Source of the DNA: Lentisphaerae bacterium GWF2_49_21
Lineage (GTDB): Bacteria; Verrucomicrobiota; Lentisphaeria; Victivallales; GWF2-50-93
DNA: 64,000 nt
NCBI GenBank assembly: GCA_001804805.1
Contig: MHBH01000033.1
Location: forward strand, 62,882 to 126,881
Reading direction: 5' to 3'
Below, piece by piece: positions 1 to 26,085 of this stretch. Under the pieces are notes generated by a model. The model was not told where the DNA came from. It saw nothing but the letters and a program-made list of their open reading frames with translations, and did not search any database. A program made the translations under genes and the position numbers. The first letter of the stretch is position 1; every line of letters begins with the position of its first letter.

Positions 1-1123
1 GATCGACGAAGCAGAAACGGGCCCTGAGGAAGCATGGACTGTCTTCTGGAAGTTTCGGAATTGCCAGCTTGACGGATGCCTTTGGTTCAAGTGAATAAGG
101 GAAATCCTTCGGGGAGGAATTGAGAGGAATGGCTTTTGACTGTCCTTCCTTTATAGGATCGCCCAGTTCAGCGCATGATCCGTCGAACATACCCCATCTG
201 GCGACCGGCTTGGCCCCCTCAGGTTCGACGCTTCCGCTTGGCATCATTGATCTCATTGGCGTAGGCGCAGGAGTCTTGTCGCTTATCTCTATAGGAGTCT
301 CCTTGGAAAGATCAATTTTCCTGTCTTTCAGATCCTTTGCGATCTTCGCAAACGCGACCACGAGCTCCTTTGAGGAATTCCAATGTTTCGGATTGCTTCC
401 ATCAGTAAACCATTCATTCAGGCAGAAGATCGCATTTTTGGAACCGTTCTTTGCGATGAATATCTGTGGTGTGGTGTCCAGACCATCCAGCCTTTTGCTG
501 CGGATCAGGGGATAGACTCCACTGTCCGCATTCTCATTTATCGGGATTATCCACCAGCCACGGATATTGCCTTTTATCTCCTTGGCATCGTGCAGATATT
601 TCCTGAGAAGATCCGTTGAGCGATGATCAACCCCCTTGTCATGCATGGCTTCATTGTAGGAATACTTCATATTGTAAAGCTTGAGGACTTCCACGTTCTG
701 CCAGGCGAAGGCTGGTGTCTTCGGGCTCATGGTCCAGAAACCGTCGGGTTCCTTGGCGGCTGCGATCAGGAAAGGGATTTTTGCTCCGAGTGACACAAGT
801 ACGCCGCCTTTTTCCGCGAAGGTCTTGTATGCCTGTATGTTTATTTTCGGGAATGCGTCACCTTGGATCATGAGCGCATCGAAGCTGTCGGCATTGAATA
901 TTTTCGGATCGTTTATCTGTTCGGCGGTCAGGAGTTCCGCCTTACATCCCGACTCCTTGAGCCAGCCAGCGGCCTTGTCAATCGCCTTAAGATCAATTGA
1001 GAAACGGCTCTCATTCGTCCCTTTTTCAGGATTCCAGACGGCCACCTTCGGTGGAGCGGATTCTTCTGCAAATGTTTCAAACGTATACAAGGTCAGGACA
1101 GCAACAAGAGCCAGGATTTTCAT
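1..1123 (-). CDS. secreted hypothetical protein (C-terminal part runs off the window)
   Basis: Absent from the ORF track because it has no stop inside the window. My manual translation from ATG 1123-1121 gives MKILALVAVLTLYTFETFAEESAPPKVAVWNPEKG... with no stop down to nt 1 and a signal-peptide-like N-terminus. The + strand track ORFs 120-515, 383-619 and 681-1538 look like shadows of it. Confidence 0.6.
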   Translation of the reverse strand, partial: MKILALVAVLTLYTFETFAEESAPPKVAVWNPEKGTNESRFSIDLKAIDKAAGWLKESGCKAELLTAEQINDPKIFNADSFDALMIQGDAFPKINIQAYKTFAEKGGVLVSLGAKIPFLIAAAKEPDGFWTMSPKTPAFAWQNVEVLKLYNMKYSYNEAMHDKGVDHRSTDLLRKYLHDAKEIKGNIRGWWIIPINENADSGVYPLIRSKRLDGLDTTPQIFIAKNGSKNAIFCLNEWFTDGSNPKHWNSSKELVVAFAKIAKDLKDRKIDLSKETPIEISDKTPAPTPMRSMMPSGSVEPEGAKPVARWGMFDGSCAELGDPIKEGQSKAIPLNSSPKDFPYSLEPKASVKLAIPKLPEDSPCFLRARFCFVD

Positions 1124-1144: not shown

Positions 1145-1972
1145 TTATGGCAGGTTGTTAAAATATTTTTGTTCGAAAGGCGGATCTGTCCATGAAAGCG
1201 GCACATGGTTGAAAGAGAAGAACTCCGCATGTCCATCGAAGAAAATTGCGTTTGTGCCCTTGTGGGGTACGCCGACCTGGGTACTGACGGACGTGGAACC
1301 GTATCGTGCCGGGAACATATACCAGCCGGTGTCGGGTGTGTCGAGAATCATGAACCATGAAGGCGATTTCGTATCAAGTTTCTCCCTCCAGTCGGTTGCT
1401 ACTGCAGGATACCAGCGCGAGAACCAATGTGAAACCCCGTATGTCACATGGTTGGAGGGTGTGTTGTTAATGGCATTTTTAAAAACTGTATCATACATGG
1501 GATGGGAAGGGCATATGGCAAATCGGACAGGCTGGTAATAGCTCCAGAAGCAGTTGCTCGAATTGTTTTGGAACCAACGTATGATGGTCGCGTCAACCAG
1601 GCTTGAATCAGGGAAAAGTTCATCCTCATGTCCTGCAGCCTTTCCTCCCAATGTGATTGGAGGGAGATATCCGTTGAAGTCCTGCGCGAAACTCGGTACG
1701 CATAGTCCCAGCTGACGCATGTTGCTCTTGCAGGAAAGAGTCTGTGCCTGGTCCTTGGCGTTCTTCAATGAAGGTAGGAGCAGCGCGGCAAGTATCGCGA
1801 TGATCGCAATTACGACGAGTAATTCAATCAATGTAAAAATTGAAAAAGTTACTCGTCGCCCTGAGCTTGTCGAACGGGCAACTCGAAGCAGCTCTATAAG
1901 GATAGAAGGATTTGCGATGCGTGAAGTTTTAAATGCAGAGGAAGTTTTTCCTGCGGGATTGAAATCGTTCAT
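1145..1972 (-). CDS. DUF1559-type pseudopilin-like protein (prepilin-type N-terminal helix, H-X9-DG-like C-terminus)
   Basis: I prefer ATG 1972 because a GGGGAGG Shine-Dalgarno sits just upstream. Motifs: [24 protein letters not shown] helix with Glu at +5, then CKSNMRQLG, and C-terminal [13 protein letters not shown]. Confidence 0.85.
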
Positions 1973-2178
1973 TTTCCGGAGCCTCCCCTGACTGAATTCA
2001 CAATGAAATATCAAGCGCTTGATATTACAGTTACCGCCTCAGCTGAAACTTGTCAAGAAGATTTTAATAATATTTATAATAATTCTTATTTTTTATATCT
2101 TTCTCTATTGACAAAGTGTTTAATTGATATAAACTTAAGTTGTATAGATAACTAACTAACCGTGTGTTTGGAGCGGGC

Positions 2179-3261
2179 ATGATAGAAAGCAAGTCAATTA
2201 TACCTCCCTACATGAGAATCGGCATGATTCTCAAGAAAAGAATTTCCGACGGAGAATATACAAGCACGTTCCCCTCCACAAACGATCTCGTAAGAGAACT
2301 TGGCGTCTCCCCTATGACAATAAATAAAGCCGTCGGCGAGCTTGTACGTGAAGGTCTGATCTACAGGAAAATCGGTTCGGGGACTTTTATCAATACAAGG
2401 AAAAAGGAAAAGAAAAAGACAGGAAGGATCATCTATTTCGTCCCCGACAAGGCCTATGGGCTCCGTCATCCGTTCCACGCCGGAGTTTTTCTGGGCATGA
2501 CTGCTGCCGCAATGGATGCCGGCTGCGAGGCGATCTTCCAGGACAGCGAAGCAAACCTTCTCGACATGATCTTCAAAAGATCAAAGGAGCTCAGCTTCGA
2601 CGGCATCATCTTCAGCCGCTGGGACAACAGGAAGATGATCGATGAAATATCGAAGGTCATTCCCATGCTTGAAATAGGAATAAGCGATGTCAGCGAAAGA
2701 ATACCTTCGGTTCACTTTGATGATGAGAACGGAGCATGCAAGGCAGTCAGATATCTTATCGGACTCGGACACAGGAGGATTGCTTTCATTACAGGATATA
2801 TGACTTGGAAGGAAGGTGAACGCAGGTTCGAAGGATATAAGAAGGCACTCAGGGAAGCAGGTATGATATTTGACGGCAGCCTTGTCTTTGAGGACGAATG
2901 GAATGATCCCGCCGGATACAGGTGCGCATCCAGGATGTTCCAGCTCGCAGAAAGGCCCACGGCAATATTTTTCACAAGCGATCATATGGCGTTTGGCGCC
3001 ATGCCCTGCATCAGGGAGAAGGGATTGACAATACCCGGCGATATCAGCATCATAGGCTTCAACAATGTGGAGGCGTCGGCCTATGTCGAGCCGGCGCTGA
3101 CGACGGTGGAGATCCCGTTCCAGAACACGGGAGCCAGGGCTTTCAAATGCATGTGTGCCATGGCCTGCGGTGTCCGGCCTTCGGAGGAGGAGCTGATGCT
3201 TGAGACAAGATTCATAATACGCAATTCGTGCTGCAGCCCAAAAACATGGAGGGAGACGTGA
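2179..3261 (+). CDS. transcriptional regulator, GntR-type winged HTH fused to a LacI/PBP1-type sugar-binding domain
   Basis: N-terminus [38 protein letters not shown] is GntR-like. The core has [12 protein letters not shown] and [10 protein letters not shown], typical of periplasmic-binding-protein-type effector domains. ATG 2179 is preceded by GGAG. The gene is divergent from the 1145-1972 gene. Confidence 0.8.
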
Positions 3262-3404
3262 GGAACATTTTCAAATGTCGATTGTCAATTGCCGATTTTA
3301 ATACAAGGATAGAAATCGGAAATCGGAAATTGGAAATCAAAAATCATTTTACTTTAATTGAATTGCTTGCTGTGCCAGCCGTAGCTGTCGGACAGTTCTG
3401 GCCG

Positions 3405-4124
3405 ATGCGAAGGCAAGTTCGAACAATGTTTACATTGATCGAACTGTTGGTCGTAATTGCGATCATCGCAATCCTTGCTGCGCTTCTCCTTCCCGCATTG
3501 CAGAACGCAAAGGATCAGGCCAAGTGTATTTCCTGCAAGAGCAATATCCGGCAGGTAGGTCTGAACTTGCTCAGCTTCACAAATGATTATGATGGATTTC
3601 TGCCTCCGTGGACCGGAGACAAAAAGAATGCAGGACATGAAGGTGAACTCTTTCCGGATAACGCGAACATGACGGCTGTAGTGGCATACAGGTGGTTCAC
3701 CGATGAGAGCTATAACTGTTTCTGGGATTACTATCAGCCTGTCAGTCTGCTTATCTGTCCATCCAATCCAAGATATGATGCGATTTACGCGAATGCAAAG
3801 GCAGGAGGCTGGGATGGCAACAGCTATGTCGCCTCGGAACGTCTTTCGAGATGGCAGGTGACGAATGGAAAATGGAAAACTCTGATTACCAAGATGGATC
3901 CGGCGAAATTCATGTTGCTTGAAAGGACGGGAAATTCAACTGGCTCCACCTATTTCTTCAGGGCTACGAACGTTGGCAGCGCCGGAAACACTCTCACCGA
4001 CCAGATCGGCATACATCACAGGGGGATAAATTCCGTATCCTATGACGGGCATGTCGACTTTTATTCTTTCAGGCATGTCCCCCTTGGATGGAACGATCCG
4101 CCATTCACGACAAATCTGTTCTGA
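3405..4124 (+). CDS. DUF1559-type pseudopilin-like protein
   Basis: Motifs: [45 protein letters not shown] and [15 protein letters not shown] (H-X9-DG). The start is ambiguous among ATG 3228, 3405 and 3426, none with a strong SD. The stop lies 13 nt upstream of the GH10 start. Confidence 0.8.
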
Positions 4125-4137
4125 AAGGCGATACTGC

Positions 4138-6111
4138 ATGCATAGAATCTTGAAAGGCATATTACTTCTTATGGCAGTTTCAAATATTGTATCTGCCGAA
4201 CAGAACTCAACAAGGAAACAGGATGCGTCTCCTGATTCCTATTTCGGAAAGCTCAAGCAGGAGTTCAAGGAGATCGGCGAGGCGTATTTCATTGGCGGTC
4301 TCAGCGAAGATGAGATCCTCGGCGGGATCGAGACCGGCGGCGGGATGGAGAAGTTCTTCGAGTCAACGGAAAAGGTGTCAAAGGAGATTATCCCTGCAGA
4401 AGGTATGCCATTCACAAAGGCGTGCAAATTCACAATATCCACGAAACCCAAGGTCTTCTGGGATGTCAGTTTCCAGCTGCTGAACAGGGAACCGGTGAAA
4501 AAAGGCGAAGCGATTCTGGTTGTTTTCTGGGCCAGGGGCAAGAAGGTTCCTCAAATAGTCGATGACGGCGCCGGCGCCACCTTCCAGTCTTATATCCAGT
4601 CAAGTATCGGAAAATTCCCCAAGGGCCGCGTAAACAACTTCTATGACTGCAAGATGCTCTCCGATAAATGGGAAAGATATTATATCAAAACAACTCCCCT
4701 GGCAATGGATTTCCCCGCAGGCAAGCTCGCACTGATCGGCATGATGGGGCATAAGGAGCAGACTGTCGAGGTAGGCGGTATCGCCTGGATGGCGTTCCCT
4801 GAAGGTGCGAATCTCGCAAAAATGCCGAAGCAGAGCTGGAATTATGAAGGACGCGCAGCCGACGCCCCTTGGCGCAAGGAGGCGGCGGAGCGGATAGGGA
4901 AGATCCGCAAGGGGAATATGTCAATAGAGGTTGTCGACGAAAAAGGACAGGCGGTAAATGATGCAGACGTCAAGATCCGGATGAAACAGCATGAATTTCG
5001 GTTCGGAGTCGCTGTCTCTGTGTCGGCTTTCACCGGCGGAAAGAAAAGTACGCCTGAAGATATTGCAAAATATCGCGAGACATCAACGGGATTCTTCAAC
5101 TCAATTGTCCTCGACAATCATCTCAAATGGGCATTTTTCGAAGGTGACCGGAAGAATGGATGGAAAGACACGAAGGAATGCCTGAAGTTCTACCATGACA
5201 ACGGAAAATATATTCGCGGGCATGTCCTGGTCTGGCCGACGGTATACAGGACGCCCGAATCCCTGAGGGACAAGTTCAAGGGGAACAAGGATCTCCTTGG
5301 AGAAACCGTGAGGAAACATGTCATCGAGGAAGTGTCTGAGTTCAAGGAATGGATCTCCGACTGGGATGTCACAAATGAAACCTCCGTAAACCGCGATTTC
5401 ATGGATACGCTGGGGCCTGAATCAATGCTTGATTGGTACAGGATCGCCCATGAGGCCGACCCGAAAACCGCCCTCACCTTCAATGAACCGGCTTTCGGAG
5501 CAGATGGAATGGAACTTGGAAGCTTCCCGGAAAAGATGCTCAGCGACAAATGCCGCGGTTGGGTGGACTACCTGATCCAGAAGAAAGCTCCTCTCTACTA
5601 TATAGGAAGCCAGTGCCATGGAGGATCGGTTGGCAAGGAATTCGGTGGCAAGACAGGTCCGGAGGGACTGTGGAAATATTTCGACCATCTATCCTCATAC
5701 TATGGAAAGAAACTGCAATACACGGAACTAGACGTAGGAATCGGGGATCCATCCGATCCGGACCAGCTCGCATATCAGGCGGATCTCCTGCGCGACACGA
5801 TGATCATCGCGTTCGCCCATCCTGCATTCGATGCGATCACTCAGTGGGGGTTCTGGGAAGGCTCACATTACGCTCCCGCCGCCGCCCTTTGGACGAAGGA
5901 TTGGAAGCTCAGGCCTGTCGGAGATGCTTATCTCAATCTGGTCTACAAGGACTGGTGGACGGATGCGGACCTGAAATCCGGCAAGGATGGGAAATGTTTG
6001 GCAAATGCATTTTTCGGAGATTACGAGATAACGGTCAATGGCAGGCCAAGGCCTGTTAAATATTCCGCCTTGGAAAAAGACAAGACCATCAGGATTGAAT
6101 TAAAACAGTAA
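4138..6111 (+). CDS. glycoside hydrolase family 10 (endo-beta-1,4-xylanase-like) with N-terminal CBM4_9-like module
   Basis: Signal peptide MHRILKGILLLMAVSNIVSAEQ from ATG 4138. GH10-type motifs NHLKWAFFE, RGHVLVWP, WDVTNE (acid/base Glu), YTELDV (nucleophile Glu) and TQWGFWE. Confidence 0.85.
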   Translation: MHRILKGILLLMAVSNIVSAEQNSTRKQDASPDSYFGKLKQEFKEIGEAYFIGGLSEDEILGGIETGGGMEKFFESTEKVSKEIIPAEGMPFTKACKFTISTKPKVFWDVSFQLLNREPVKKGEAILVVFWARGKKVPQIVDDGAGATFQSYIQSSIGKFPKGRVNNFYDCKMLSDKWERYYIKTTPLAMDFPAGKLALIGMMGHKEQTVEVGGIAWMAFPEGANLAKMPKQSWNYEGRAADAPWRKEAAERIGKIRKGNMSIEVVDEKGQAVNDADVKIRMKQHEFRFGVAVSVSAFTGGKKSTPEDIAKYRETSTGFFNSIVLDNHLKWAFFEGDRKNGWKDTKECLKFYHDNGKYIRGHVLVWPTVYRTPESLRDKFKGNKDLLGETVRKHVIEEVSEFKEWISDWDVTNETSVNRDFMDTLGPESMLDWYRIAHEADPKTALTFNEPAFGADGMELGSFPEKMLSDKCRGWVDYLIQKKAPLYYIGSQCHGGSVGKEFGGKTGPEGLWKYFDHLSSYYGKKLQYTELDVGIGDPSDPDQLAYQADLLRDTMIIAFAHPAFDAITQWGFWEGSHYAPAAALWTKDWKLRPVGDAYLNLVYKDWWTDADLKSGKDGKCLANAFFGDYEITVNGRPRPVKYSALEKDKTIRIELKQ

Positions 6112-6165
6112 GTCGGTTTTCAAACCGACATTTGAATTGTCGGGTTGAAACCCGACATACTTAAG
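6112..6165 (-). repeat. REP family 1 (two-hairpin element), inverted orientation
   Basis: Hairpins GTCGGTTT-TC-AAACCGAC (6112-6129) and GTCGGGTT-GA-AACCCGAC (6139-6156), followed by ATACTTAAG. The reverse complement matches the copies at 10867 and 37239. Confidence 0.85.
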
Positions 6166-6172
6166 AGGAAAT

Positions 6173-7504
6173 ATGAAAACAATATTTTTAACCATGTTCG
6201 TCCTATATGCTGCAATGGTTTGTTCCGCTGGAAATCCAAATCCCCTCCCAAATCCCGGATTCGAGGATGGCGACAGGATGTGGTCGTTCGGAGATTCTAC
6301 CTCGAAGCTGGTGCACGAAGCCGCCCATGAAGGGAAAAGCGGACTGCGCGTAGGGGACGAGGAATACAATGCTGATCCGGGATCAGTGACCAGCGCAAGG
6401 CTTCCGGTGAATCCCGGACAGGAAGTGACTCTGTCATTCTGGGCAAGAGGAAAGAACAAGAGCAGCGGTGCCTACATTTACTTCTATGATTCGGGCGGAA
6501 AAGTCATTTCGAAGCCCCAGCCAGCCCTCTGGCCTGCCAATGAGGATGGAGAGTGGCATCAGTATTCCCTTAAGGAAAAAGCTCCGGTAAATGGAACCTC
6601 GGTCGCGGTCTGGGTTCATTTTTCACCGGGCAACATCGGCATTACCGACTATGACGATTTCGCTTTTGAAGGAATAGATTCCGGAGTGACTGCCATTCCT
6701 CCACAGGCGTCCAGGGACAGGGTGAAGCCGAAGGAGGCTGTAAAGGATCTCCCACCTCGCAAGGAGCCGGCAGTGATAATCCTCAAGCTGGACGATCTTT
6801 CACAGAAAAACGGAAAAGTGCATCCATCCTGGCAGAAAATTTCGGATTTCCTCGAATCACGCAAGATAAAGGGATCCTTCGGTGTGGTATGTGAAAGCAT
6901 GCAGGATGCAAAGCCCGAATATGCGAACTGGATCAAGACGCGCCATGACTCAGGAGCCATTGAGTTCTGGTTCCATGGATGGGATCATGCTTCTCACAAT
7001 GAAGGCGGAAAATCATTGAGCGAATTCGACACGAGATCCTATGAGGAGCAGAAGAGCCGGTTCGACAGGTCGCAGAAGCTTGCGCTTGAGAAATTAGGTT
7101 TTGCATTCGAGACATTCGGTCCTGGCGGAGGCGGCTCGGGGCAGCATTTCGACGCCAATACATGCAAAGTGATGCAGGATGATCCATACATGAAGGCATG
7201 GCTTTACAACAAGCCAATCGACGATGATGGGAAAAAACTCCAGGAGGCCGGCAAGATAACGATTCTTGATCGCGTCTGGGAAGTGAACATTGAAGGTGCG
7301 GTAGGGGTTCCTGATTCAAAGAAGCTGATTGCAGGATACAAGAGCCATCCCGACAGGAAATATTTTGTGCTGCAGGGCCACCCTCAGATGTGGGCTGGAG
7401 CAAGGTTTGATGAGTTTGTAAAGATCATCGATTTCCTGACAGAGCAGAAATGCGTTTTCGTGACACCGATGGGATATGTGAATTCAATTAAGGGGGTAAA
7501 GTGA
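6173..7504 (+). CDS. secreted CBM4_9-like + polysaccharide-deacetylase-like (CE4/DUF2334-like) protein
   Basis: Signal peptide, then an NPGFEDG...DYDDFAF beta-sandwich-like module. The C-terminal domain has ILKLDDL and FHGWDHASH, resembling the NodB-type DD and H-x3-H metal motifs. It is paralogous to 8307-9101. Confidence 0.65.
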
Positions 7505-8265
7505 TTATGAGATTTATTGATTCTAGTTTTTTATTTTTTGGTGCAAAAAATAAAAAATATGTAATAGCCTTTACGCTTATCGAGCTCCTGGTCGTGATCG
7601 CGATCATCGCAATCCTTGCTGCGCTCCTTCTTCCGGCGTTGAAAGGCGCCAAGGACCAGGCGCAGGCGGTCATCTGCAAGAGCAACATGCGGCAGATCGG
7701 GATGAACGTCATAAGCTTTACAATCGACCGTGAAGGATATCTGCCGGTCTTCACCGGCGACGGCAAGACTGCAGGACACCGCGATGAAATATTTCCAGAT
7801 GATGCCAACATGACCAGCATGACTAACTTCTACAGGTGGTTCACGAATTTCACGAACAACGACAATTGTTTCTGGGATTATTATCAGCCGCTCAGCAAGA
7901 TGGTATGCCCGTCACACCCGCGGCATGATGCAATCCTCGCACAGGCCGGCTCCTGGGACGGCAATTCTTATGTGGTCAATGAAAGATTCTCCAGATGGCA
8001 GGTCGGTTACAAGCGCCAGACCATGATACATACTGTCGGTACTGAGAAGTTCATGCTGCTCGAAAGGACGGCCCTGACAGGTACGACATCGTATTCGTTC
8101 AGGTCGCTTTCCACCGGTACTCCGGGGAACATGATCCCTGACCAGATCGGGATACATCACAAGGGGACGAACGCCGTGTTTTTCGACGGGCATGTGGACT
8201 TTTTCCGGTTCACCCACATTCCACAATCCTGGAGCGATGCCCCGTTTGAGACGAAGTATTTCTGA
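7501..8265 (+). CDS. DUF1559-type pseudopilin-like protein
   Basis: Motifs: [45 protein letters not shown] and [18 protein letters not shown] 7501 overlaps the upstream stop; ATG 7507 is an alternative start. Confidence 0.85.
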
Positions 8266-8283
8266 AGGAAAATTTAAAATAAA

Positions 8284-8305
8284 GGAGCGCCGGCGTCTCG
8301 CCGGC
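8284..8305 (+). repeat. REP family 2 hairpin 22-mer GGAGCGCCGGCGTCTCGCCGGC
   Basis: Hairpin GCCGGCG-TCT-CGCCGGC. The identical 22-mer occurs in reverse orientation at 47945-47966. Confidence 0.9.
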
Positions 8306-8306
8306 A

Positions 8307-9101
8307 ATGATAAAAATGAAAATCTTTCGAATGCTATCGATTGCGATCGCTTCCGTATCGGTTGGTTTTGCAGCCTTTTCCGAGGATGCGACAAAAAAAC
8401 CGCAGGTCGTCATCCTGAAACTGGACGACCTTACTACGAAATTCCCGAGCAAGGACTGTCCTGCCGGCGCAAGATGGAAGAAGGTCGTCGACACCGTGGA
8501 GAAAAAGAAGATTAAGGCGTCTTTCGGGATAATCCTCAATTCCCTTGAGAAGGACAACCAGTCTTATTTCGACTGGATTAAAGAGCAGAATAAAAAGGGA
8601 AACATTGAATTTTGGAACCATGGAATGACGCATGCGGAAAACAAAGAGACCAAGGCACAGGAGTTCAACAAGGGTTCATCATACGAGGAACAGAAGGCGA
8701 CAATTGAAAAAGGGCAGAAGCTGGCGAAGGAGAAGCTCGGGATAACTCTTGCAACTATAGGAACGCCGTTCAACTCCTTCAGCGAAGACACTGAGAAGGC
8801 GCTCGAGGATTTTCCGGAGATAAAGATATGGTTCTTCGGTCCTGGGAAACCAAAGATCAGCAAGAAACTTATACTTGGAAGGGTGGTCAACCTTGAAAGT
8901 TCCGTCGGGAATCCCGATTTCGACAAGTTCAAGGAGTCTTATGAAGCTAAGGGTAAGGACAAGGAATACATCGTCCTGCAGGGCCATCCTCCGGCGTGGG
9001 ACGACAAGAAATACGAGAACTTCGAGAAGGTGATCGACTACCTGCTTGAAAAGGGCTGCGTATTCATGACTCCATCGGAATACGCCGCGGCGAAGAAATG
9101 A
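8307..9101 (+). CDS. secreted polysaccharide-deacetylase-like (CE4/DUF2334-like) protein
   Basis: Signal peptide MIKMKIFRMLSIAIASVSVGFAAFS. VVILKLDDL and FWNHGMTHA motifs parallel the C-terminal domain of 6173-7504. Confidence 0.65.
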   Translation: MIKMKIFRMLSIAIASVSVGFAAFSEDATKKPQVVILKLDDLTTKFPSKDCPAGARWKKVVDTVEKKKIKASFGIILNSLEKDNQSYFDWIKEQNKKGNIEFWNHGMTHAENKETKAQEFNKGSSYEEQKATIEKGQKLAKEKLGITLATIGTPFNSFSEDTEKALEDFPEIKIWFFGPGKPKISKKLILGRVVNLESSVGNPDFDKFKESYEAKGKDKEYIVLQGHPPAWDDKKYENFEKVIDYLLEKGCVFMTPSEYAAAKK

Positions 9102-12856: not shown

Positions 12857-15667
12857 TCAGAGTTTGAATTCTACTGTGACTATCTTCCCTTTGCCAGCTT
12901 TTAGTTTGATGGCTCCGCCCTGCAGGGACAGCTTTTCAAGTCTCTCCTCGCTGAGTTTCGCCATATATGCGCTCTGGAATTTGAATCCGGGCTTGATAAG
13001 GCAGTCCTTCGGTTCCTCAGTCGGATTGTAGAATCTTACGATGACGCTGTTCCTGTCCTCGGCCTTCTTCACCGAGCTCAGGATGATATTGTCGCCTTCG
13101 ATCTCGAGGAAGCTGTTTTGAACCGGCAGGATTCCATGCTGTTTCCCGAACTGGCAGGCCTTCATTGGAGCATTGAATGAGAGAGACTGGTTGTAGAGTC
13201 CGGCCTTCTCCCATGTTCCCTTGTGGGGCATTACGGCGTATCTGAAACTGTAGCTGCCGAGTGACTGCGAACTTTCATCCCCGGGATATTCCATCCAGAG
13301 GCGGTTGTCGCAGGGGATCCTGAGCCTGACGCCCCTGATAAGCCCCATCGCCATCGTGCCGTTTGTGTCGTTCTCGAGGATCTCATAGTCCTTTGCGGCG
13401 TCCGAAAGGATCGCGAGCCCGTCCTTGCCGTCGCTCAGATCGAACCAGAGCTGGGCAGGATGGCGTGCAAGTTCGTTGCCTCTCATTTCGCCGGTGACTG
13501 TCGGCCTGACCGGGAATTCCGTCACCGAGAATGAACCTTCTGCCCAAGTCTTTTCCGCCTTGAGTCCTGTCGGGAAACATACTTTCAGGTAATGATCCCT
13601 GATGGTGTTTGTGATGGAAGTCTCGACTTCGAGATACGGGCTTCCCTTCTTCAGGAGGAGTTTTACGGTGACAGGCATATCCTTCAGGCATTCGGAGCGG
13701 CGTTGCTTGATCCAGTCGAGTTCGGAAGGAAGCTGGAGCGTCTGCTCGATCGTGAAGGAGACGGCCAGGGGGCCGTTCACGTTGACGGATATCCTTGCTG
13801 ATGCATTCAGGCTGTTGACCATGCTGTCGTTGCCGGGATTGCTGGACATCCACATGTTCCCCTTGTCGCCATGATCAAGGAAATAATTGAGGTTCCCGTA
13901 GGAACGTCCGGTCTTCTTGTCTGTGACGTTGAAGGTTCCATTGGCGTTGATATTCACGCGGATGAATTCATTTTCCGCCTCGCAGGGTCCGCTGAGGAGG
14001 TTCAGCGCATGTATGCGCGGGGCATCCCAGCCCTCGTGAGGGTAGGGGTATTCGTTCTTTTCAGTCCATTTGATCTTGTAGGTCTTGTAGCCGAGTGCGG
14101 GTACGTTCTGCGCCAGGAAATACAGATGGACATTGGTGCAGTAGAAAGGCATGTTGCGGCTGCGCGGGTGATAGATGCCTGCGCGTGTCTCATGCCGTTC
14201 GACTTCCTGCATCTGTACCGGTTTGCCGGACATGTCCTCTATTATGAGGTAATTGAGCCTTGCGTCGCGCGGAACGTCGACATAGGCTTCGACGACTTCG
14301 CTGCGCGGGAAGGATGACGGATTATTTACGCTGAGGAAGAATTCCGTGTCTGAAACTCCGCTGGTGTTGATCTCCTTCGTCAAGTTCTGGAGACCGCGGC
14401 GTTCAATGCCCTGTGCGATGACATGCGCCTGCTTGAGCCTGCTCATTTCGCCCTCGCCGAGGGTTTTCGGACCGAGTCCGTGCATGGAATCATGTGCGTG
14501 GCTCTGGAACATCAGCTTCCATATCTTTTCAAGATAGGTTGTAGGATATCTTTCAATTCCGAGGAGCCAGGAGAGCGTAGAGAGCGGCTCCGACCAGCGC
14601 ATGATCCTGTTTTCAGCATGGCTGTTTTCTATCATGATCTCGGGATGGATCGTGAATACGTCGGTGTGGATGGCGCCGACAGGACCGTCGCGCATCGGAC
14701 CCTTTACGACTGCAAGATCCTTGCGGTCCTTCAGGATTCCCTTGATCTCGTCCAGATAATCCTTGAGGGTGCTGTGCACGACATCATATTCGTCCTTGAA
14801 CTCCTCCTTGAAGGCCTTTATCATGTCGGCCATCAGGGGATGAGGCTCGGTGAAATCGGTGCCGTCGAAGAAGAGCACGGCTTCCGGCGCGGCAGTGCCT
14901 TCGACTGTCTTCAGGGTGCGTTCCATCGCCATCCGCAGATTGTCCTTGTTGAAGGATGTCTCCGGATCAAGTATGTCGTAGAACCATCCGTGTCCTTCAG
15001 GATCCGCGGTATGGAAGACCTTTCCGAGTTCGCCCCATTTGAACTGCCAGTCCTTGTGCCAGGCATCCTTGTCGTATACGAGCGGGATATGTCCTGCAAA
15101 GAAGAAGTTCCAGCGGGCTTCGCGCCCGAGCCTGGAAGCGAGTGCGCGCGTGCCGTCGGGCGCCTCCCATATGAATTCATGGTATTTGGACTTCTTTGGA
15201 TCCATGTGCTTATAGAATAGGATTGTATCGATGCCGAAGTTGGCGTAGATCTGCGGAAGCTGGGCGATCTGGCCGAAGGAGAAGACATTGTATCCGCATT
15301 TCAGTACATGTCCGTATTCCTTGGATTTCCTGACGCCGTAGAGGATGTTGCGGACGACGGATTCGCCCTGGATCGGGGCGCAGTCGGCGAGGGTGTACCA
15401 GGGGCCGAGTTCGAGGCGGCCGTCTTTTGCAAGCTTCTTGATCTCTTCGGTCTTTTCAGGCCTGATCTCGAGGTAGTCGTCGAGCATGGTGACCTGTCCG
15501 TCGAAGAGGAAGGACCTGTAGTCTTTTTTCTTCTTTATGATCTCGAGAAGCTTGTCGACACAGTCCACCAGACGCATGCGCGTCCTTTCAAATTCCCAGC
15601 GGAATTCCCTGTCCCAGTGAGTGTAGCTGACGATATGGATTCTCTTTTTCCCGGTCAAATTCTTCAT
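12857..15667 (-). CDS. glycoside hydrolase family 38 (alpha-mannosidase / mannosylglycerate-hydrolase-like)
   Basis: 936 aa. N-terminal IHIVSYTHWDREFRWEF is the GH38 metal-site motif; size and remaining architecture fit GH38. Confidence 0.88.
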   Translation of the reverse strand: MKNLTGKKRIHIVSYTHWDREFRWEFERTRMRLVDCVDKLLEIIKKKKDYRSFLFDGQVTMLDDYLEIRPEKTEEIKKLAKDGRLELGPWYTLADCAPIQGESVVRNILYGVRKSKEYGHVLKCGYNVFSFGQIAQLPQIYANFGIDTILFYKHMDPKKSKYHEFIWEAPDGTRALASRLGREARWNFFFAGHIPLVYDKDAWHKDWQFKWGELGKVFHTADPEGHGWFYDILDPETSFNKDNLRMAMERTLKTVEGTAAPEAVLFFDGTDFTEPHPLMADMIKAFKEEFKDEYDVVHSTLKDYLDEIKGILKDRKDLAVVKGPMRDGPVGAIHTDVFTIHPEIMIENSHAENRIMRWSEPLSTLSWLLGIERYPTTYLEKIWKLMFQSHAHDSMHGLGPKTLGEGEMSRLKQAHVIAQGIERRGLQNLTKEINTSGVSDTEFFLSVNNPSSFPRSEVVEAYVDVPRDARLNYLIIEDMSGKPVQMQEVERHETRAGIYHPRSRNMPFYCTNVHLYFLAQNVPALGYKTYKIKWTEKNEYPYPHEGWDAPRIHALNLLSGPCEAENEFIRVNINANGTFNVTDKKTGRSYGNLNYFLDHGDKGNMWMSSNPGNDSMVNSLNASARISVNVNGPLAVSFTIEQTLQLPSELDWIKQRRSECLKDMPVTVKLLLKKGSPYLEVETSITNTIRDHYLKVCFPTGLKAEKTWAEGSFSVTEFPVRPTVTGEMRGNELARHPAQLWFDLSDGKDGLAILSDAAKDYEILENDTNGTMAMGLIRGVRLRIPCDNRLWMEYPGDESSQSLGSYSFRYAVMPHKGTWEKAGLYNQSLSFNAPMKACQFGKQHGILPVQNSFLEIEGDNIILSSVKKAEDRNSVIVRFYNPTEEPKDCLIKPGFKFQSAYMAKLSEERLEKLSLQGGAIKLKAGKGKIVTVEFKL

Positions 15668-15974: not shown

Positions 15975-16994
15975 ATGGTTAAAGTAACAAATATAAATGG
16001 AATTGCGAAGCTCGCAGGGGTTTCAACTGCGACTGTCTCCCGCGTGATGAACAACAAGAGCATTGTCCACGAGGATACCAGACGGAAGATCCTCCAGATC
16101 GCGAGGGATATGAACTACCGGCCAGGACTTGCCGGCGGGAAAAAAGATGGCGGGATCAGGACCATCGGGCTGATCATGCCCAGCAATATCAGCGATTTCT
16201 TCTACGGAATTGAAAATGAAATCAAAAGAATGAAGCACAGGCTGCTGTTTTCAACTTATCATGGAAGCGAGGAGTCTCTGAGGGATATTATGGAATACAT
16301 GGAATCACTCTGTGTCGATGGAATAATCCTCATGGTTCCGCAGGCGGAGATAAATGTCAGAGATCTCCTTTCCGATACGCTTGTCCCCGTCGTGACTTTC
16401 AGCACTCCGTCCGGAATCGGCTGCTGCACTTCGATAAGAATTGACAATGCCCAGGGCGCATATGTGGCCGTAGAGCATCTGATCAAGAACCACAGGCATA
16501 AAAAAATTGCGATGATAAAAGGCCCTGGAAGGAATATTGATTCGGAAGAACGCCTGCAGGGCTTCATGGACGCGCATGGGAAGAATGGGATTCCGGTGAA
16601 GTCAAATTTCATAGTCGAAGGCGACTTCACCTACCAGTCGGGCTTCTACGCGTTCTCCCGTCTCGTCTCGCTTCCGGAGAGGCCGGATGCGGTATTTGCC
16701 GCGAATGACGTCATGGCCGCCGGTGCATATGAGGCCGCGAAGGCGAGGGGGCTTGTGATTGGCAGGGATATTGCGATCGTCGGATTTGACGACATCCAGC
16801 TGTCCGGACTGATCAAGCCGTCGCTGACGACAGTGCACGTGCATTTCAACGAGCTCGGAGTCAAGGCCCTCTCCCATCTTGTCAATATAATAGAAGGCAG
16901 GACCGACCGGAACGAGATGCATGACGAGAGGATTTCCTCCGGCCTTATCATCAGGGAATCGTGCGGCTGCAAGGTGGAGAACAGGATTTTGTGA
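15975..16994 (+). CDS. LacI family transcriptional regulator
   Basis: HTH IAKLAGVSTATVSRVMNNKSIVHEDTRRKILQIARDMNYRP, plus a PBP1 core with AVFAANDVMAAGAY and DIAIVGFDD. Confidence 0.9.
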   Translation: MVKVTNINGIAKLAGVSTATVSRVMNNKSIVHEDTRRKILQIARDMNYRPGLAGGKKDGGIRTIGLIMPSNISDFFYGIENEIKRMKHRLLFSTYHGSEESLRDIMEYMESLCVDGIILMVPQAEINVRDLLSDTLVPVVTFSTPSGIGCCTSIRIDNAQGAYVAVEHLIKNHRHKKIAMIKGPGRNIDSEERLQGFMDAHGKNGIPVKSNFIVEGDFTYQSGFYAFSRLVSLPERPDAVFAANDVMAAGAYEAAKARGLVIGRDIAIVGFDDIQLSGLIKPSLTTVHVHFNELGVKALSHLVNIIEGRTDRNEMHDERISSGLIIRESCGCKVENRIL

Positions 16995-17024
16995 ATATCG
17001 AATAATGAACAACTAATATCGAAT
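16994..17024 (+). promoter_or_regulatory. direct repeat AATATCGAAT x2, 21 bp apart
   Basis: 16994-17003 and 17015-17024, in the 52-nt spacer between LacI and the DUF1559 gene. Confidence 0.3.
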
Positions 17025-17046
17025 GACAAAAGAATAAAGGTGCCCC

Positions 17047-17763
17047 ATGCTTATCATCACGAAAAAATTTAAAAAGGAGTTTACTTTAATCGAACTTCTA
17101 GTCGTGATCGCGATCATTTCGATTCTCGCCGCCCTTCTCCTGCCTGCGCTCAAGCAGGCGAAGGAGACCGCCTGGGCCACGGTCTGCAAGTCGAACCTGA
17201 AACAGCAATTTACGGGTTTTCTCATATATGCAACAGACAACAGGGATTACCTCCCTCCTAGCATGATAAACTATCCGGATTTCTGGTATGATGGAGTCGA
17301 TTGGAACAACCAGTGGGTCAAATGGTACTTCGCTCCATTTGTCGGCCAGTATATCGGCATTGCAAAATATGGCGCAATTCCTGAAAGCAGTGTTGCCTAC
17401 TGTCCCAAGGGATATACCAAATACAATCAGAACAAGGACTGGTGGAACCGGGGCTCAACTCTGGGATATAACTGCAAATGGCCCAACAACGGCAATGGAT
17501 ACGAGACCAGCGAGCTGAGGAAATATCCATATCTGAATTTCAGGAACCCCTCCAAGCTCTACATTGTCGTCGATGTGGACGGAGGAGACTTCTTTGCCAG
17601 TTTCGGCGTGAACGATCCGGGCGGGTACTGGTCCGGACAAGGTGTTGAATACCGGCATCTCAATTCCGCAAACATGCTTTTCCTTGATGGACATGTCGAT
17701 ATATCCAAGAACCTCCAGAACGACTACCAGAACGGTGAAAACACATATAAGATCCAGCGGTGA
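17047..17763 (+). CDS. DUF1559-type pseudopilin-like protein
   Basis: Motifs: [45 protein letters not shown] and [15 protein letters not shown] (H-X9-DG). Confidence 0.85.
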
Positions 17764-21803: not shown

Positions 21804-22814
21804 ATGAAAAACCTTACAAGAAAAGATATTGCGAAAGCCGCGGGAGTCTCCCCTTCAACGGTGTCGCGTGCGCTTTCAGGAAGTCCGCTTCTGCCGAAGA
21901 AGACCATCGAGCATGTCACCAGAATCGCTGCAAAACTCGGTTACAGGCCGAACATCCTGGCAAGGCGCCTCGCTTCAAACAGGAGTTTCCAGATCGCGTT
22001 CGCGGTCGAGTTGTGGACAGGCACCCGAAGAGGTCCGATCCAGATGTCATACTATTCCGCGATCCTCGATGCGATGGTCTCGGAGGCCTTCAAAAGGAAC
22101 TACAGCGTGCTTGTACAGCCCTACACAAAGGATGAAGAGTCTTTTGTGGAGCATTTTACGAATCTAATACAGACGAAGCATGCCGACGGACTTGTATTCG
22201 CCGGGCTTGCAATTAAAAGTGGAATTCCCGCCGAACTCACCAGAAGACAGCTCCCGTTCGTGGTCATAGGATCAAAACCCGGGAAGGATAAATTTGTGTC
22301 TGTCAATGCCGATCCTTATCCGGCAATGGTGGAAATGTTCGAGGTGCTGATGGCAAAGAAATACAAGAGGATCTTCTTCGTCGAAGGCGACATGAACTTC
22401 TATCATGCCATTTCACACAGGGACGCGTTCATGAAAGCCCTGAAGAAGAGCTCGCTGAAGCTGGCCGGATTCATCGAAGGTGACTATTCGAGGAGGCGCG
22501 GCTACAGCATGGCACCGGAAATCATCGTCGATAAAAGGAAAGGTGACTGTGTTTTTTTCTCAAATGACAGGATGGCCACCGGATTCTACAGGTACTGTTA
22601 TGAGAACAAGGTCTCCATTCCTGATGAGATAGGGGTGGTCGGCAGCGACGACGATGAATCGGCGCTGGTGCTTTATCCTGAGCTCAGCACGATCCGCCAG
22701 CCGCGTGTCGAAATGGGCGCGGCGGCAGTGAACCTGCTGGTTGACGTGCTTGAGAAGAAGAAGCCGGAGCCGGTGGTCATCCCGAACAGTTTCATTGCAA
22801 GAAGATCAATTTAA
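21804..22814 (+). CDS. LacI family transcriptional regulator
   Basis: HTH IAKAAGVSPSTVSRALSGSPLLPKKTIEHVTRIAAKLGYRPN plus a PBP1 core (VFFSNDRMATGFY, EIGVVGSDD). Confidence 0.9.
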   Translation: MKNLTRKDIAKAAGVSPSTVSRALSGSPLLPKKTIEHVTRIAAKLGYRPNILARRLASNRSFQIAFAVELWTGTRRGPIQMSYYSAILDAMVSEAFKRNYSVLVQPYTKDEESFVEHFTNLIQTKHADGLVFAGLAIKSGIPAELTRRQLPFVVIGSKPGKDKFVSVNADPYPAMVEMFEVLMAKKYKRIFFVEGDMNFYHAISHRDAFMKALKKSSLKLAGFIEGDYSRRRGYSMAPEIIVDKRKGDCVFFSNDRMATGFYRYCYENKVSIPDEIGVVGSDDDESALVLYPELSTIRQPRVEMGAAAVNLLVDVLEKKKPEPVVIPNSFIARRSI

Positions 22815-22827
22815 AAGAAAGAAAAGT

Positions 22828-22945
22828 TGACAGGATAACAGGATTGGCAGGATTGTTCAAAAGGATTAAGAATGGAATTTATTGATATGTCGAGATTGAT
22901 GATTGTATTGTTTTAAAAACATCCAGTAAATCCTGTTATCCTGTC
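22828..22945. repeat. 118-bp element bounded by perfect 17-bp inverted repeats
   Basis: GACAGGATAACAGGATT (22828-22844) and AATCCTGTTATCCTGTC (22929-22945). Sits between LacI and the oxidoreductase. Confidence 0.9.
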
Positions 22946-22975
22946 CATGTAAAATAATTTAATTAAGAGGTAAAA

Positions 22976-24073: not shown

Positions 24074-24106
24074 AGACCGAACCGGAGAATCGGAGTATCG
24101 GAGAAG

Positions 24107-24216: not shown

Positions 24217-24236
24217 ATAAAGAAAAGGAAATTAAA

Positions 24237-24896: not shown

Positions 24897-24903
24897 GCGA
24901 ACC

Positions 24904-25002: not shown

Positions 25003-25023
25003 ACATTTATTAAGAAGGAGAAC

Positions 25024-26058: not shown

Positions 26059-26085
26059 ATTCAGGCGACAGCCTGAATTTATGAT

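Follow-up and report, generated by a model that had tools for sequence, protein, structure and literature searches.

The present analysis reveals that genes for pilin-like proteins (PPs) are integral, conserved members of operons that combine a sugar-responsive regulator with CAZymes, and not scattered neighbours of them. An uncultured Lentisphaeria bacterium carries, at the left end of the 64,000-nucleotide stretch of DNA analysed (the window), a conserved xylan/xyloglucan (hemicellulose) utilisation cluster, presumably under the control of the adjoining regulator. In this regulator, Pfam recognises a winged-helix DNA-binding domain of the GntR type and a sugar-binding domain of the LacI type. 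Our best reading is that the PPs are sugar-induced, operon-specific pilin-like subunits for a T2SS/T4P-type machine encoded elsewhere.

The first 9,101 nucleotides of the window hold the regulator, PP1 to PP3, a GH10 gene, and two DUF2334/CE4-like esterase genes in operon-like packing (Table 1), and the transcription units for exported enzymes carry a PP at the head or interleaved. All seven genes that the initial annotation had reported at 1145-9101 are present to within a few bases, and the tight spacing it described is correct: 13 nt (4125-4137) separate PP2 from GH10, and a GTGA stop/start overlap at 7501-7504 joins the CBM4_9-DUF2334 gene to PP3. Gaps between a PP and the exported-enzyme gene after it are 13 to 41 nt. 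The regulator frame is open from GTG 2164, with the conserved start at ATG 2179. The truncated gene lying 21 nt after PP1 extends the locus leftward; it has no Pfam match, its orthologues are about 876 aa long, and the next gene in orthologous loci encodes a GH74 xyloglucanase. In locus L005, the 876-aa orthologue contains a weak GH39-like stretch (6yyh, 2.6e-5), and GH74 follows (2cn2, 1e-90). The best solved-structure match of the GH10 protein is the beta-xylanase 7d88 (3e-27), and its N-terminal region of about 280 aa belongs to no known family.

Table 1. Features of the window, in order of position.
Feature	Position	Strand	Evidence
Exported protein, N-terminal 374 aa	2-1123	-	Signal-peptide-like N-terminus MKILALVAVLTLYTFETFAEE; runs off window start
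PP1, pilin-like, heads divergent operon	1145-1972	-	TIGR02532 20.8 bits; N-terminal GspG match
Perfect 20-bp palindrome AATATCAAGCGCTTGATATT	2007-2026		35-54 nt upstream of PP1 start codon
Promoter-proximal block of regulator	2108-2153	+	TTGACA -35-like hexamer at 2108; promoter-like match 10/12
Hybrid regulator	2179-3261	+	PF00392 6e-11 (GntR HTH); PF13377 2e-33 (Peripla_BP_3); PF00532 2e-17
PP2, pilin-like, first gene of GH10 operon	3405-4124	+	TIGR02532 26.3 bits
GH10 xylanase-like exported enzyme	4138-6111	+	PF00331 2e-29; signal peptide MHRILKGILLLMAVSNIVSA
CBM4_9 + DUF2334 (CE4-like) putative glycan deacetylase	6173-7504	+	PF02018 7e-7; PF10096 6e-7; signal peptide
PP3, pilin-like	7507-8265	+	PF07963 25.1 bits (cut-off 21.2); TIGR02532 22.7 bits
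DUF2334/CE4-like exported esterase, last gene of cluster	8307-9101	+	PF10096 3e-12; PF01522 (Polysacc_deac_1) 3e-8; signal peptide
LacI regulator-PP4 module	15975-17763	+	LacI 15975-16994; 52-nt gap; PP4 17047-17763

The palindrome upstream of PP1 is a candidate LacI/cre-type operator. It is unique in the window (0.01 occurrences expected by chance) and, apart from two changes, is also present between the orthologous genes of L001, L005, and L008. The promoter-proximal block of the regulator is invariant between the window and these three loci, occurs once in the window, and includes the imperfect palindrome AGTTGTATAGATAACT at 2138-2153. Like the PULs of Bacteroidota (SusC/SusD plus surface glycan-binding proteins), the cluster brings a regulator and glycan-active enzymes together with accessory proteins that are not catalytic, with presumed co-regulation and one set per substrate. 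In contrast to them, its accessory proteins are pilin-like, and the locus has no transporter of any kind, TonB-dependent receptor (SusC), or SusD. By definition, the locus is not a PUL.

PP1 to PP3 each bear the 22-residue pilin N-terminal segment and a C-terminal H-X8-DG motif, and all exceed the TIGR02532 cut-off of 16.3 bits. They had previously been assigned to DUF1559/H-X9-DG proteins. Relatives found by homology search are annotated as DUF1559 or "prepilin-type processing-associated H-X9-DG protein", and the PPs belong to the superfamily of DUF1559 (PF07596) and TIGR04294 proteins of Planctomycetes, Verrucomicrobia, and Lentisphaerae. However, both family models stay below threshold (DUF1559, cut-off 23.3 bits: PP1 16.5, PP2 20.8, PP3 no match; TIGR04294: PP4 18.0 bits against 19), and the spacing, counted from the family-invariant His, is X8 instead of X9. 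The window PPs form a narrow clade, which at E <= 1e-30 comprises only 11 cluster representatives. PP1 to PP3 are mutual closest paralogues (50-62% identical), and PP4 is 33-34% identical to them.

The N-terminal 50-58 residues match GspG (TIGR01710), the T2SS major pseudopilin, better than any other family, at 32-35 bits against a cut-off of 88.85; this N-terminus is homologous to GspG and solved pilins, and its helix is almost invariant (F1, E5, P22). In pilins, the N-terminal helix is recognised by the prepilin peptidase, the platform protein, and neighbouring filament subunits. The AlphaFold2 model of PP3 (pLDDT 82.6) combines a 51-residue alpha-1 helix with a beta-sheet. The head of about 175 residues has a conserved disulfide (C59-C136) and an H...N...DGH beta-hairpin and is variable elsewhere; family-invariant positions in the alignment include Cys, Asn, Pro, Cys, His, and Asp-Gly-His. 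Although the head is modelled confidently (pLDDT 84), Foldseek returned no lectin, CBM, SBP, or solved pilin-head match and none in the PDB, and as modelled it appears to be an elaborated pilin globule outside known fold families. The PPs resemble GspG and type IV pilins (TIGR02532, PF07963) in their short basic leader, in residues F1, E5, and P22, in a hydrophobic alpha-1 of about 50 residues, and in a small head that contains a beta-sheet and a disulfide. They differ in matching GspG at the N-terminus only, in their non-conserved -1 Gly, in a head without PDB counterpart, in lying in catabolic operons away from gsp/pil machinery genes, and in forming large paralogue families rather than one set per machine.

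The arrangement of LacI-type regulators, CAZymes, and PPs is beyond chance, as synteny and a permutation test demonstrate. The same locus occurs in at least six related Lentisphaeria contigs, where orthologous PP positions are kept though the proteins are only 47-85% identical, PPs stay interleaved with exported enzymes despite enzyme gain or loss, and a rearranged version retains the order LacI-PP-DUF2334-GH10. Among 80 quasi-random PP-family loci from PVC genomes, 12 of the 17 LacI-type genes touch a PP gene against 5.5 ± 1.7 expected (reached in 1 of 10,000 permutations), and the regulator precedes the PP in 10 of these 12 pairs (P = 4e-5). LacI-PP adjacency is enriched in this family-wide sample, and the permutation and orientation tests reject random placement, the objection that the initial annotation had raised. 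The Lentisphaerota genes at +1/+2 after PPs are mostly glycan-active (four CBM9, two heparinase II/III, two DUF4838, and a sulfatase, GH78, polysaccharide lyase, and esterase), with SSF sugar symporters appearing twice, whereas the control genes are housekeeping. By a crude predictor, 18 of 32 downstream proteins have signal peptides (14 do not) versus 6 of 32 controls (P = 0.002). In other PVC phyla, PP neighbours are heterogeneous and include non-glycan genes.

In a genome rich in CAZymes, duplication and gene conversion might nevertheless place members of a huge recombining paralogue family (about 3% of genes) at operon heads, with no function in the adjacency. The family is indeed very large, with 17,110 representatives at E <= 1e-10 after clustering at 50% identity and more than 7,699 matches in the homology search; extra PPs make up 3.2% of flanking genes, and degenerate FTLIELL copies, i.e., partial 5' duplications, upstream of PP1, PP2, P0003, and P0093 point to paralogue recombination. 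The retention of PP positions at such modest identity, the non-random placement, and a neighbour content unlike that of controls speak against this explanation, which is largely rejected and which we consider highly improbable.

Whether the PPs enter a filament depends on their processing. PP1 (ATG 1972, preceded by a GGGGAGG ribosome-binding site) has a long leader with a degenerate second ILIELL copy and a hairpin (z = -4.2), its mature part beginning at the Phe codon 1837-1835. PP2 has the leader MRRQVRTM, a mature Phe codon at 3429, an AUG at 3426 enclosed by a hairpin, and its in-frame FTLIELL copy at about 3348-3368. PP3 starts at GTG 7501 or ATG 7507, overlapping or abutting the preceding stop, with a perfect 14-bp A/U hairpin at 7527-7557 and the mature Phe codon at 7570. 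The residue at -1 is M, I, A, and E in the four window PPs and Gly in 1 of 54 Lentisphaerota PPs, Pro, Arg, and Ile being found as well; of 70 PPs from other PVC phyla, 66 have G or A there. Characterised prepilin peptidases require the canonical -1 Gly. For the PPs, in which this Gly is missing, cleavage and hence filament assembly are putative.

The hydrophobic N-terminus may instead be an uncleaved signal-anchor, the PPs being bitopic inner-membrane proteins whose periplasmic heads bind oligosaccharides near an importer, scaffold periplasmic enzymes, or act as sensors. Besides the -1 residues, the Pfam name of DUF1559 (SBP_bac_10) and the SSF symporters are in keeping with this possibility, as is the lack of machinery genes near the window PPs and among the 25 most frequent neighbour families. 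In agreement with the initial annotation, Pfam matched no secretin, GspE/PilB, GspF/PilC, or prepilin peptidase in the scanned window ORFs (nearly all non-overlapping ORFs of at least 150 aa; the end-truncated ORF 62676-63998 was inspected by eye only). However, the 22-residue segment, invariant across thousands of paralogues and including E5 and P22, is constrained far beyond the needs of a membrane anchor and matches the requirements of filament packing and machine recognition. Furthermore, short basic leaders (MKKx, MRRQVRTM) resemble class III signal peptides, and a periplasmic-binding-protein fold would not fit into so small a head, nor does any such fold match it structurally. We consider a signal-anchor role distinctly unlikely.

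Our best reading would proceed as follows. A sugar effector would release the regulator, and the PP would be co-produced with the enzymes, enter the inner membrane, undergo processing, and be taken up as an operon-specific subunit by the shared machine, so that a common fibre or pseudopilus would gain a substrate-specific surface. In the version that we narrowly favour, the variable head would bind the target glycan or its fragments and keep it at the envelope for the exported enzymes expressed alongside. The PP would then be a surface glycan-binding protein built on a pilin, unrelated to SusD/SGBPs but analogous to them in function. Gene content, tight spacing, synteny, LacI-PP adjacency and order, the downstream glycan-active and signal-peptide genes, the pilin-like N-terminus and model, and the absence of a transporter or TonB-dependent receptor are consistent with this reading, as are the units of PP1 to PP3, which encode exported enzymes, unlike the PP-less regulon at 21804 (GFO/IDH, ThuA, GH43), whose enzymes lack signal peptides and are cytoplasmic. 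On the other hand, only two of the window's four LacI regulons include a PP, those at 21804 and 32667 lacking one, contrary to the previous claim that each sugar-responsive regulon carries its own, and PP4, in a module divergent from a cytoplasmic GH38 gene (12857-15667, -), has no exported enzyme after it. The unmatched head model also speaks against glycan binding, which we infer, as the initial annotation did in placing pseudopilins "instead of SusC/D" for capture or uptake. With the atypical -1 residue, the machinery-free window, and the non-glycan neighbours across PVC phyla, the whole explanation, from regulated cluster to operon-specific subunits with glycan-binding heads, is plausible but tentative. 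The interpretation given in the initial annotation is thus borne out in part.

That the PPs couple to the exported enzymes of the same operons, or to the secretion of these enzymes, suits the data about equally well. Here, GspG-like PPs would recognise through their heads the exported enzyme encoded just downstream, recruiting it to a T2SS pseudopilus for outer-membrane secretion or tethering it at the surface, i.e., as operon-specific secretion or display adaptors and not glycan binders. The GspG match, the short PP-to-enzyme gaps, the downstream signal peptides, and the cytoplasmic enzymes of the PP-less regulon fit this, and the non-CAZyme partners across PVC suggest partner rather than glycan specificity. 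L090 has four successive pairs (PP-876aa, PP-GH74, PP-CBM/CE4, PP-DUF2334), a near one-to-one alternation that suits an enzyme-partner role at least as well as glycan binding. Yet, L090 keeps the PP2 orthologue after losing GH10, and L089 has two tandem PPs ahead of GH10; therefore, the pairing is not strictly one-to-one. In addition, the closest paralogues PP1 to PP3 precede unrelated enzyme folds, and many downstream proteins lack a predicted signal peptide. We know of no T2SS with cargo-specific pseudopilins; in known systems, one set secretes dozens of proteins. Laminarin up-regulates T2SS genes in cultured Lentisphaerae, according to supplements of PMC11361711, which agrees with this alternative as well as with our best reading. 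Overall, we rate enzyme coupling as somewhat unlikely.

Precedents exist for the preferred pilin-borne glycan binding. The Caldicellulosiruptor bescii pilin CbPilA is xylan-induced; it binds directly to both xylan and cellulose and mediates attachment of the cells (10.1101/614800). Both cases would tie a pilin to xylan, induction and binding being inferred for the PPs; CbPilA, however, comes from a monoderm, where it is the only major pilin of a complete T4P locus, whereas the PPs are paralogues among enzymes and a LacI-type regulator, and the sequence relationship is confined to the pilin N-terminus. In Streptococcus sanguinis, PilC is a lectin-bearing modular pilin. The concept is the same, a functional head giving the filament its binding specificity, as outlined for the modular adhesive pilin PilB (PMC8179133), but the heads there are grafted domains that can be recognised as such (vWA, lectin), while the PP head is an elaborated pilin globule and a putative binder.

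The fibre/crateriform model of Planctomycetes (Boedeker et al. 2017, as summarised in PMC12673574) envisages whole-polysaccharide uptake and periplasmic digestion. There, too, PVC bacteria without SusC/D are considered, pili are proposed to capture high-molecular-weight sugars, and the organisms have many DUF1559 paralogues. However, no gene is known to be linked to those fibres, uptake is a feature of that model only, and the cell biology of Lentisphaeria may differ. According to a passing mention (PMC10632474), no paralogue group of Planctopirus limnophila is larger than the DUF1559 family, two members of which are essential; as the initial annotation had stated, no function of the family is reported in the searchable literature. 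The conserved, non-random placement of PPs at the heads of sugar-regulated xylan/xyloglucan operons gives a large family of unreported function a testable role in polysaccharide use.

The pilin-like proteins studied here (PPs) are embedded, non-randomly and conservedly, in operons that are linked to a regulator and encode exported glycan enzymes. Three of the four encoded in the window (PP1 to PP3) lie in a gene cluster at its start, and the fourth (PP4) lies apart. All genes named by the initial annotation were recovered by ORF listing and domain scans, and 4/4 enzyme-like proteins of the cluster have signal-peptide-like N-termini. The initial observation is upheld and extended, and its interpretation is borne out in part. 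The GH10, two CE4/DUF2334 enzymes and the GntR/LacI regulator fall within 7 kb, so that the locus is a CAZyme gene cluster with a transcription factor in the dbCAN sense; no transporter is present in this cluster. The regulator shares the sugar sensor of LacI-family members (PF13377, 2e-33) but not their PF00356 helix-turn-helix, its own being of the GntR type (PF00392, 6e-11). It is therefore a hybrid of a GntR-type DNA-binding domain and a LacI-type sensor.

Positions of the PP genes, their neighbours and conserved intergenic elements in the window
Feature	Position (nt)	Strand	Remark
Exported protein, orthologue of the 876-aa protein	2-1123	-	After PP1 in the same unit; runs off the window
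PP1	1145-1972	-	Heads the minus-strand unit
Perfect 20-bp palindrome AATATCAAGCGCTTGATATT	2007-2026		Upstream of PP1, PP1/regulator intergenic; candidate LacI/cre-type operator
Second conserved block	2138-2153		PP1/regulator intergenic, beside a TTGACA hexamer
Regulator, GntR HTH with LacI-type Peripla_BP_3 sensor	2179-3261	+	Pfam
PP2	3405-4124	+	13 nt before GH10
Exported GH10	4138-6111	+	Domain scan
Exported CBM4_9-DUF2334 protein	6173-7504	+	Domain scan
PP3	7501/7507-8265	+	Start overlaps or abuts the preceding stop codon
Exported DUF2334/CE4-like esterase	8307-9101	+	Domain scan
Cytoplasmic GH38	12857-15667		Divergent from the LacI-PP4 pair
Canonical LacI regulator	15975-16994	+	52 nt before PP4
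PP4	17047-17763	+	Fourth paralogue, not in the initial annotation; six-frame motif scan
Further LacI regulons without PP	21804-26961 and 32667-33602
GH78 alpha-L-rhamnosidase and two tandem sulfatases (one with a Tat-like RRDFLR leader)	44021-46651 and 56130-59047	- and +

The remainder of the window holds housekeeping genes (GroEL, DnaK, IDH, SOD, PHO4) and glycan genes (GH38, GH43, GH78, two sulfatases); GH78 and the sulfatases show that glycan-degradation genes are abundant in this genome also outside PP-linked operons. The gene 340 nt after PP4 encodes a DUF2157 membrane protein, and PP4 has no exported enzyme downstream. The earlier proposal that every sugar regulon carries its own pseudopilin is wrong in this window, since the LacI regulators at 21804 and 32667 have no PP in the window. 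The former is followed by GFO/IDH/MocA, ThuA, GFO/IDH/MocA and GH43 enzymes (up to 26961), all without signal peptides, in contrast to the PP-containing units, which encode exported enzymes. Between this GH43 cluster and the next LacI regulator lies a gene for a giant exported protein of 1,844 aa (27030-32564) with HEAT/PBS-lyase repeats and a TPR-like region. Sequence inspection also revealed a toxin-antitoxin-like pair on the minus strand (59273-59907), in which the gene for a 79-aa protein precedes that for a PIN-like protein of 132 aa (MNLILDTHALIWAAMD...).

The arrangement recurs in related Lentisphaeria. Orthologous loci were taken from exact-protein look-ups; a genome contig scan gave no close orthologues and returned a quasi-random family sample instead. 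Three orthologous loci (L001, L005, L008) share a common layout, in which a leftward unit of PP, an 876-aa protein and a GH74 xyloglucanase faces away from a rightward unit of GntR/LacI regulator, PP, GH10, CBM4_9/DUF2334, PP, (AXE1) and DUF2334. The GH74 of this layout is a 739-aa protein (2cn2, 1e-90), and the 876-aa protein shows only a weak GH39-like stretch. Other loci vary the theme. L089 has two tandem PPs ahead of GH10; L090 has lost GH10, keeps the PP after the regulator and places a PP ahead of each of four successive exported enzymes; L002-4 read LacI, PP, DUF2334, GH10 and, further on, GH2; and in L006 and L091 a GntR/LacI regulator diverges from a tandem pair of PPs, with GH2, DUF2334 and GH16 on the flanks. 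Thus, PPs are retained while enzymes come and go. No Pfam match to a TonB-dependent receptor or SusD was found in the scanned window ORFs, nor do the precomputed Pfam annotations of the syntenic loci include one. The adjacent SusC-like and SusD-like genes of a Bacteroidota-type PUL are accordingly missing here; whereas a Bacteroidota PUL has SusC/SusD, the PP locus is without either. The initial annotation had described a PUL-like locus with pseudopilins instead of SusC/D, and this substitution we treat as a hypothesis.

The initial annotation had also called for weighing the adjacency against a permutation expectation. We did so in a quasi-random sample of 80 family loci (Verrucomicrobia, Planctomycetes and Lentisphaerota), with ORFs called in this analysis and LacI-type genes marked by an HMM of the four regulators in the window. 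Twelve of 17 LacI-type genes lie directly beside a PP, against 5.5 ± 1.7 in within-locus permutations, where 12 was reached in 1 of 10,000. The order is LacI then PP on the same strand in 10/12 (binomial P = 4e-5 vs 1/4), and in the window itself a PP comes directly after two of the four regulators (simulation P = 0.03). Chance adjacency is therefore largely excluded and, in our judgment, very improbable.

In Lentisphaerota, gene strings recurrently read LacI, PP, large protein, all in one direction. The first and second genes after Lentisphaerota PPs (n = 32) include CBM9 (four), DUF4838 (two), heparinase II/III (two), a sulfatase, GH78, a polysaccharide lyase, an esterase and SSF symporters (two), while the 32 controls taken from these loci are mainly housekeeping genes. 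Signal peptides, called with a crude predictor, occur in 18/32 downstream proteins vs 6/32 controls (P = 0.002). Across PVC bacteria, the first downstream genes are mixed (TPR, aconitase, ECF sigma, PepSY, also CAZymes), and a CAZyme link for the whole family was dropped because this downstream Pfam census is too heterogeneous. The CAZyme link is thus a Lentisphaerota feature. In the non-Lentisphaerota loci (L009-L088, Verrucomicrobia and Planctomycetes), the PP is often followed by a small protein (110-200 aa) that matches no Pfam family, which suggests a different, possibly general, two-gene module of a PP plus partner.

Both conserved blocks between PP1 and the regulator are kept in the orthologous loci and occur once each in the window; no extra copies were found upstream of PP2, PP3 or GH10 at up to 3 mismatches. 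The cognate protein of the palindrome is uncertain, as the palindrome is of the LacI/cre type and the neighbouring regulator has a GntR helix-turn-helix. Scans for sigma-70 promoters (12 vs 10.4 in shuffled sequence) and intrinsic terminators (10 vs 8.9) gave no excess; therefore, the operon boundaries are drawn from spacing and synteny only. The PP leaders contain several local features. In PP1 (1813-1858) and PP2 (3415-3445), strong hairpins (PP1 z = -4.2) form between the TLIEL(LVV) codons and leader codons that are their reverse complement, the PP2 stem containing the AUG at 3426. PP3 has a perfect 14-bp A/U hairpin (7527-7557), which explains the conserved leader peptide 'FLFFG.KNKK' of its orthologues. 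A hairpin between leader and FTLIELL, the start of the mature pilin-like N-terminus, was rejected as a regulatory element of the whole family: PP1 and PP2 have it in strong form, and it is not general (P = 0.07 and 0.8 vs controls). A degenerate second in-frame FTLIELL copy precedes the real one by 20-30 codons in PP2 (3348-3368), PP1 (~1890-1915) and the relatives P0003 and P0093; these copies are best read as a putative partial 5′ duplication, a mark left where paralogues recombined within the conserved sequence coding for the N-terminus. Downstream of the regulator, the spacer that separates it from PP2 (3311-3345) carries tandem heptamers (AAATCGG, AAATCGG, AAATTGG, AAATCAA ...) and the inverted repeat CCGATTT / AAATCGG, and similar translated leaders, 'NIF(D/K)C(R/Q).SI.DF', are found in the relatives P0003, P0007 and P0014. 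Judged from sequence, the repeats and leaders suggest a possible conserved DNA or RNA element.

The N-terminus identifies the PPs as pilin-like. The model TIGR02532 matches PP1 (20.8 bits), PP2 (26.3) and PP3 (22.7) above its cut-off of 16.3, and PF07963 matches PP3 (25.1 bits, cut-off 21.2), with PP1, PP2 and PP4 slightly under (18.9-20.6). Glu at +5, a hydrophobic helix of ~20 residues and Pro22 are present, the 22-residue stretch being found in 4/4 PPs and invariant in 38 aligned relatives. The first ~50 residues align best with the T2SS major pseudopilin GspG, far under the cut-off of its equivalog model (TIGR01710; 32.4-34.5 bits vs 88.85 required, model positions 3-56 only), and a profile search of solved structures matched pilins and GspG at the N-terminus only.

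The DUF1559/H-X9-DG label given initially holds at the superfamily level by homology search; the curated models do not endorse it, and the X9 spacing is confined to PP4. For DUF1559 (PF07596, threshold 23.3 bits), PP1 and PP2 score 16.5 and 20.8 over the first ~45 profile positions only, and PP3 and PP4 have no match. For H-X9-DG (TIGR04294, cut-off 19 bits), PP3 and PP4 score 15.2 and 18.0, and PP1 and PP2 have no match; counted from the invariant His, the C-terminal motif is H-X8-DG in PP1-3 and H-X9-DG in PP4. Relatives 47-72% identical to the PPs carry precomputed PF07596 matches, so kinship with the DUF1559 superfamily is likely. A homology search gave at least 7,699 matches, the close ones being Lentisphaeria MAG proteins and the distant ones being named 'prepilin-type ... 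H-X9-DG protein' or 'DUF1559'. An exhaustive HMMER search returned 17,110 representatives of 50%-identity clusters at E ≤ 1e-10 and 11 at E ≤ 1e-30; therefore, PP1-3, which are 50-62% identical to one another and 33-34% to PP4, form a narrow clade in a very large diversified family.

The pilin/pseudopilin N-terminus is under extreme constraint, and the head is variable. Among the 38 relatives (PP3 numbering), the 22-residue N-terminus including E5 and P22 is invariant, as are C59, N62, P82, C136 (CPS motif), H220 and D229; G230-H231 is nearly so, and the remaining positions vary, with many indels. AlphaFold2 gave confident models (full-length PP3, pLDDT 82.6; head only, 84.4), which show a 51-residue alpha-1 helix (26-76) followed by six strands. 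In Foldseek comparisons of both models with the PDB, the helix was matched (6xxd) and the head found nothing at E < 1; hence, no lectin, CBM or SBP assignment can be made. A 'solute-binding protein' reading suggested by the Pfam name was rejected, the head having no Foldseek match. According to the models, the architecture looks pilin-like, and the head is an unclassified elaboration rather than a periplasmic-binding-protein fold.

The prepilin peptidases characterised so far need Gly (rarely Ala) at -1, the residue before the first mature residue. The -1 residue is I in PP1, M in PP2, A in PP3 and E in PP4, behind short basic leaders (MKKx, MRRQVRTM). Gly is found in 1/54 Lentisphaerota PPs (loci L010-L083, the window and L001-L008), where Ala, Ser, Arg, Pro and Ile are common; in Verrucomicrobia and Planctomycetes, Gly accounts for 39/70 and Ala for 27/70 (66/70 together). 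Either the peptidase of this lineage has relaxed -1 specificity or the PPs are uncleaved. The missing Gly speaks for a non-filament, membrane-anchored role of the PPs, which we consider improbable.

We regard it as probable that PPs are filament subunits, induced by sugar and specific to their operon, which a shared T2SS/T4P-type machine encoded elsewhere would use. In line with the initial remark, no assembly machinery was found in the window: a Pfam scan of nearly all non-overlapping ORFs of at least 150 aa (the end-truncated ORF 62676-63998 being judged by eye) gave no match to secretin, GspE/PilB, GspF/PilC or prepilin peptidase. What the head would do is a matter of two main readings. PPs could couple the co-encoded exported enzymes to T2SS secretion or display, as would be suggested by the GspG-like N-terminus, by the alternation of PPs and enzymes in L090 and by the partners unrelated to glycans that PPs have in other phyla; we consider this main rival rather unlikely. 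Our tentative and narrow preference over enzyme coupling is that the head of such a filament subunit may bind glycan, because xylan-induced, xylan-binding pilins exist, because the locus is without a transporter or outer-membrane receptor, and because the PP clade follows the locus and its substrate, not any single enzyme: the PP2 orthologue persists despite the loss of GH10, and PP1-3 are mutual closest paralogues yet precede unrelated enzymes. The xylan-induced, xylan-binding pilin is CbPilA of Caldicellulosiruptor bescii (10.1101/614800). Two further papers lend support that is indirect only: laminarin raises T2SS gene expression in cultured Lentisphaerae (PMC11361711), and Planctomycete fibres are proposed for polysaccharide uptake (PMC12673574).

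A bolder extension, to which we give little credence, is that PPs lend substrate specificity, as subunits, to a dynamic pilus or pseudopilus that is inducible by sugar. It would catch hemicellulose chains and, retracting through a secretin, pull them into the periplasm for digestion by the Sec-exported enzymes that the PP operons encode. Such SusC/D-independent 'selfish' import would mechanistically resemble DNA uptake by competence pili.

Planctomycetes, Verrucomicrobia and Lentisphaerae are major degraders of complex glycans, and DUF1559/H-X9-DG proteins are among their largest paralogue families. To our knowledge, these phyla lack SusC/D, the system that explains glycan capture in Bacteroidota. 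Literature searches on DUF1559, H-X9-DG and pseudopilin or prepilin with PVC taxa returned no functional study, in agreement with the initial remark that DUF1559 proteins have no settled function, and the searchable literature yielded no paper on the function or operon context of DUF1559/H-X9-DG proteins. The link of PPs to LacI-controlled operons for exported glycan-degrading enzymes, conserved and backed by statistics, is the first concrete lead to their role that can be tested, and it points to defined substrates (xylan, xyloglucan), partner enzymes and a regulator. Furthermore, the loss of the -1 Gly in Lentisphaerota predicts that their prepilin peptidase has an unusual specificity or that the pilin N-terminus is used in a non-canonical way. 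Import of hemicellulose by a PP fibre, if true, would explain why DUF1559/H-X9-DG proteins have expanded so much in PVC bacteria and how these take up whole polymers. The link of PPs to these operons casts pilin-like proteins as modular components of catabolic operons and suggests that type IV filament machines can be re-equipped, regulon by regulon, with interchangeable subunits.
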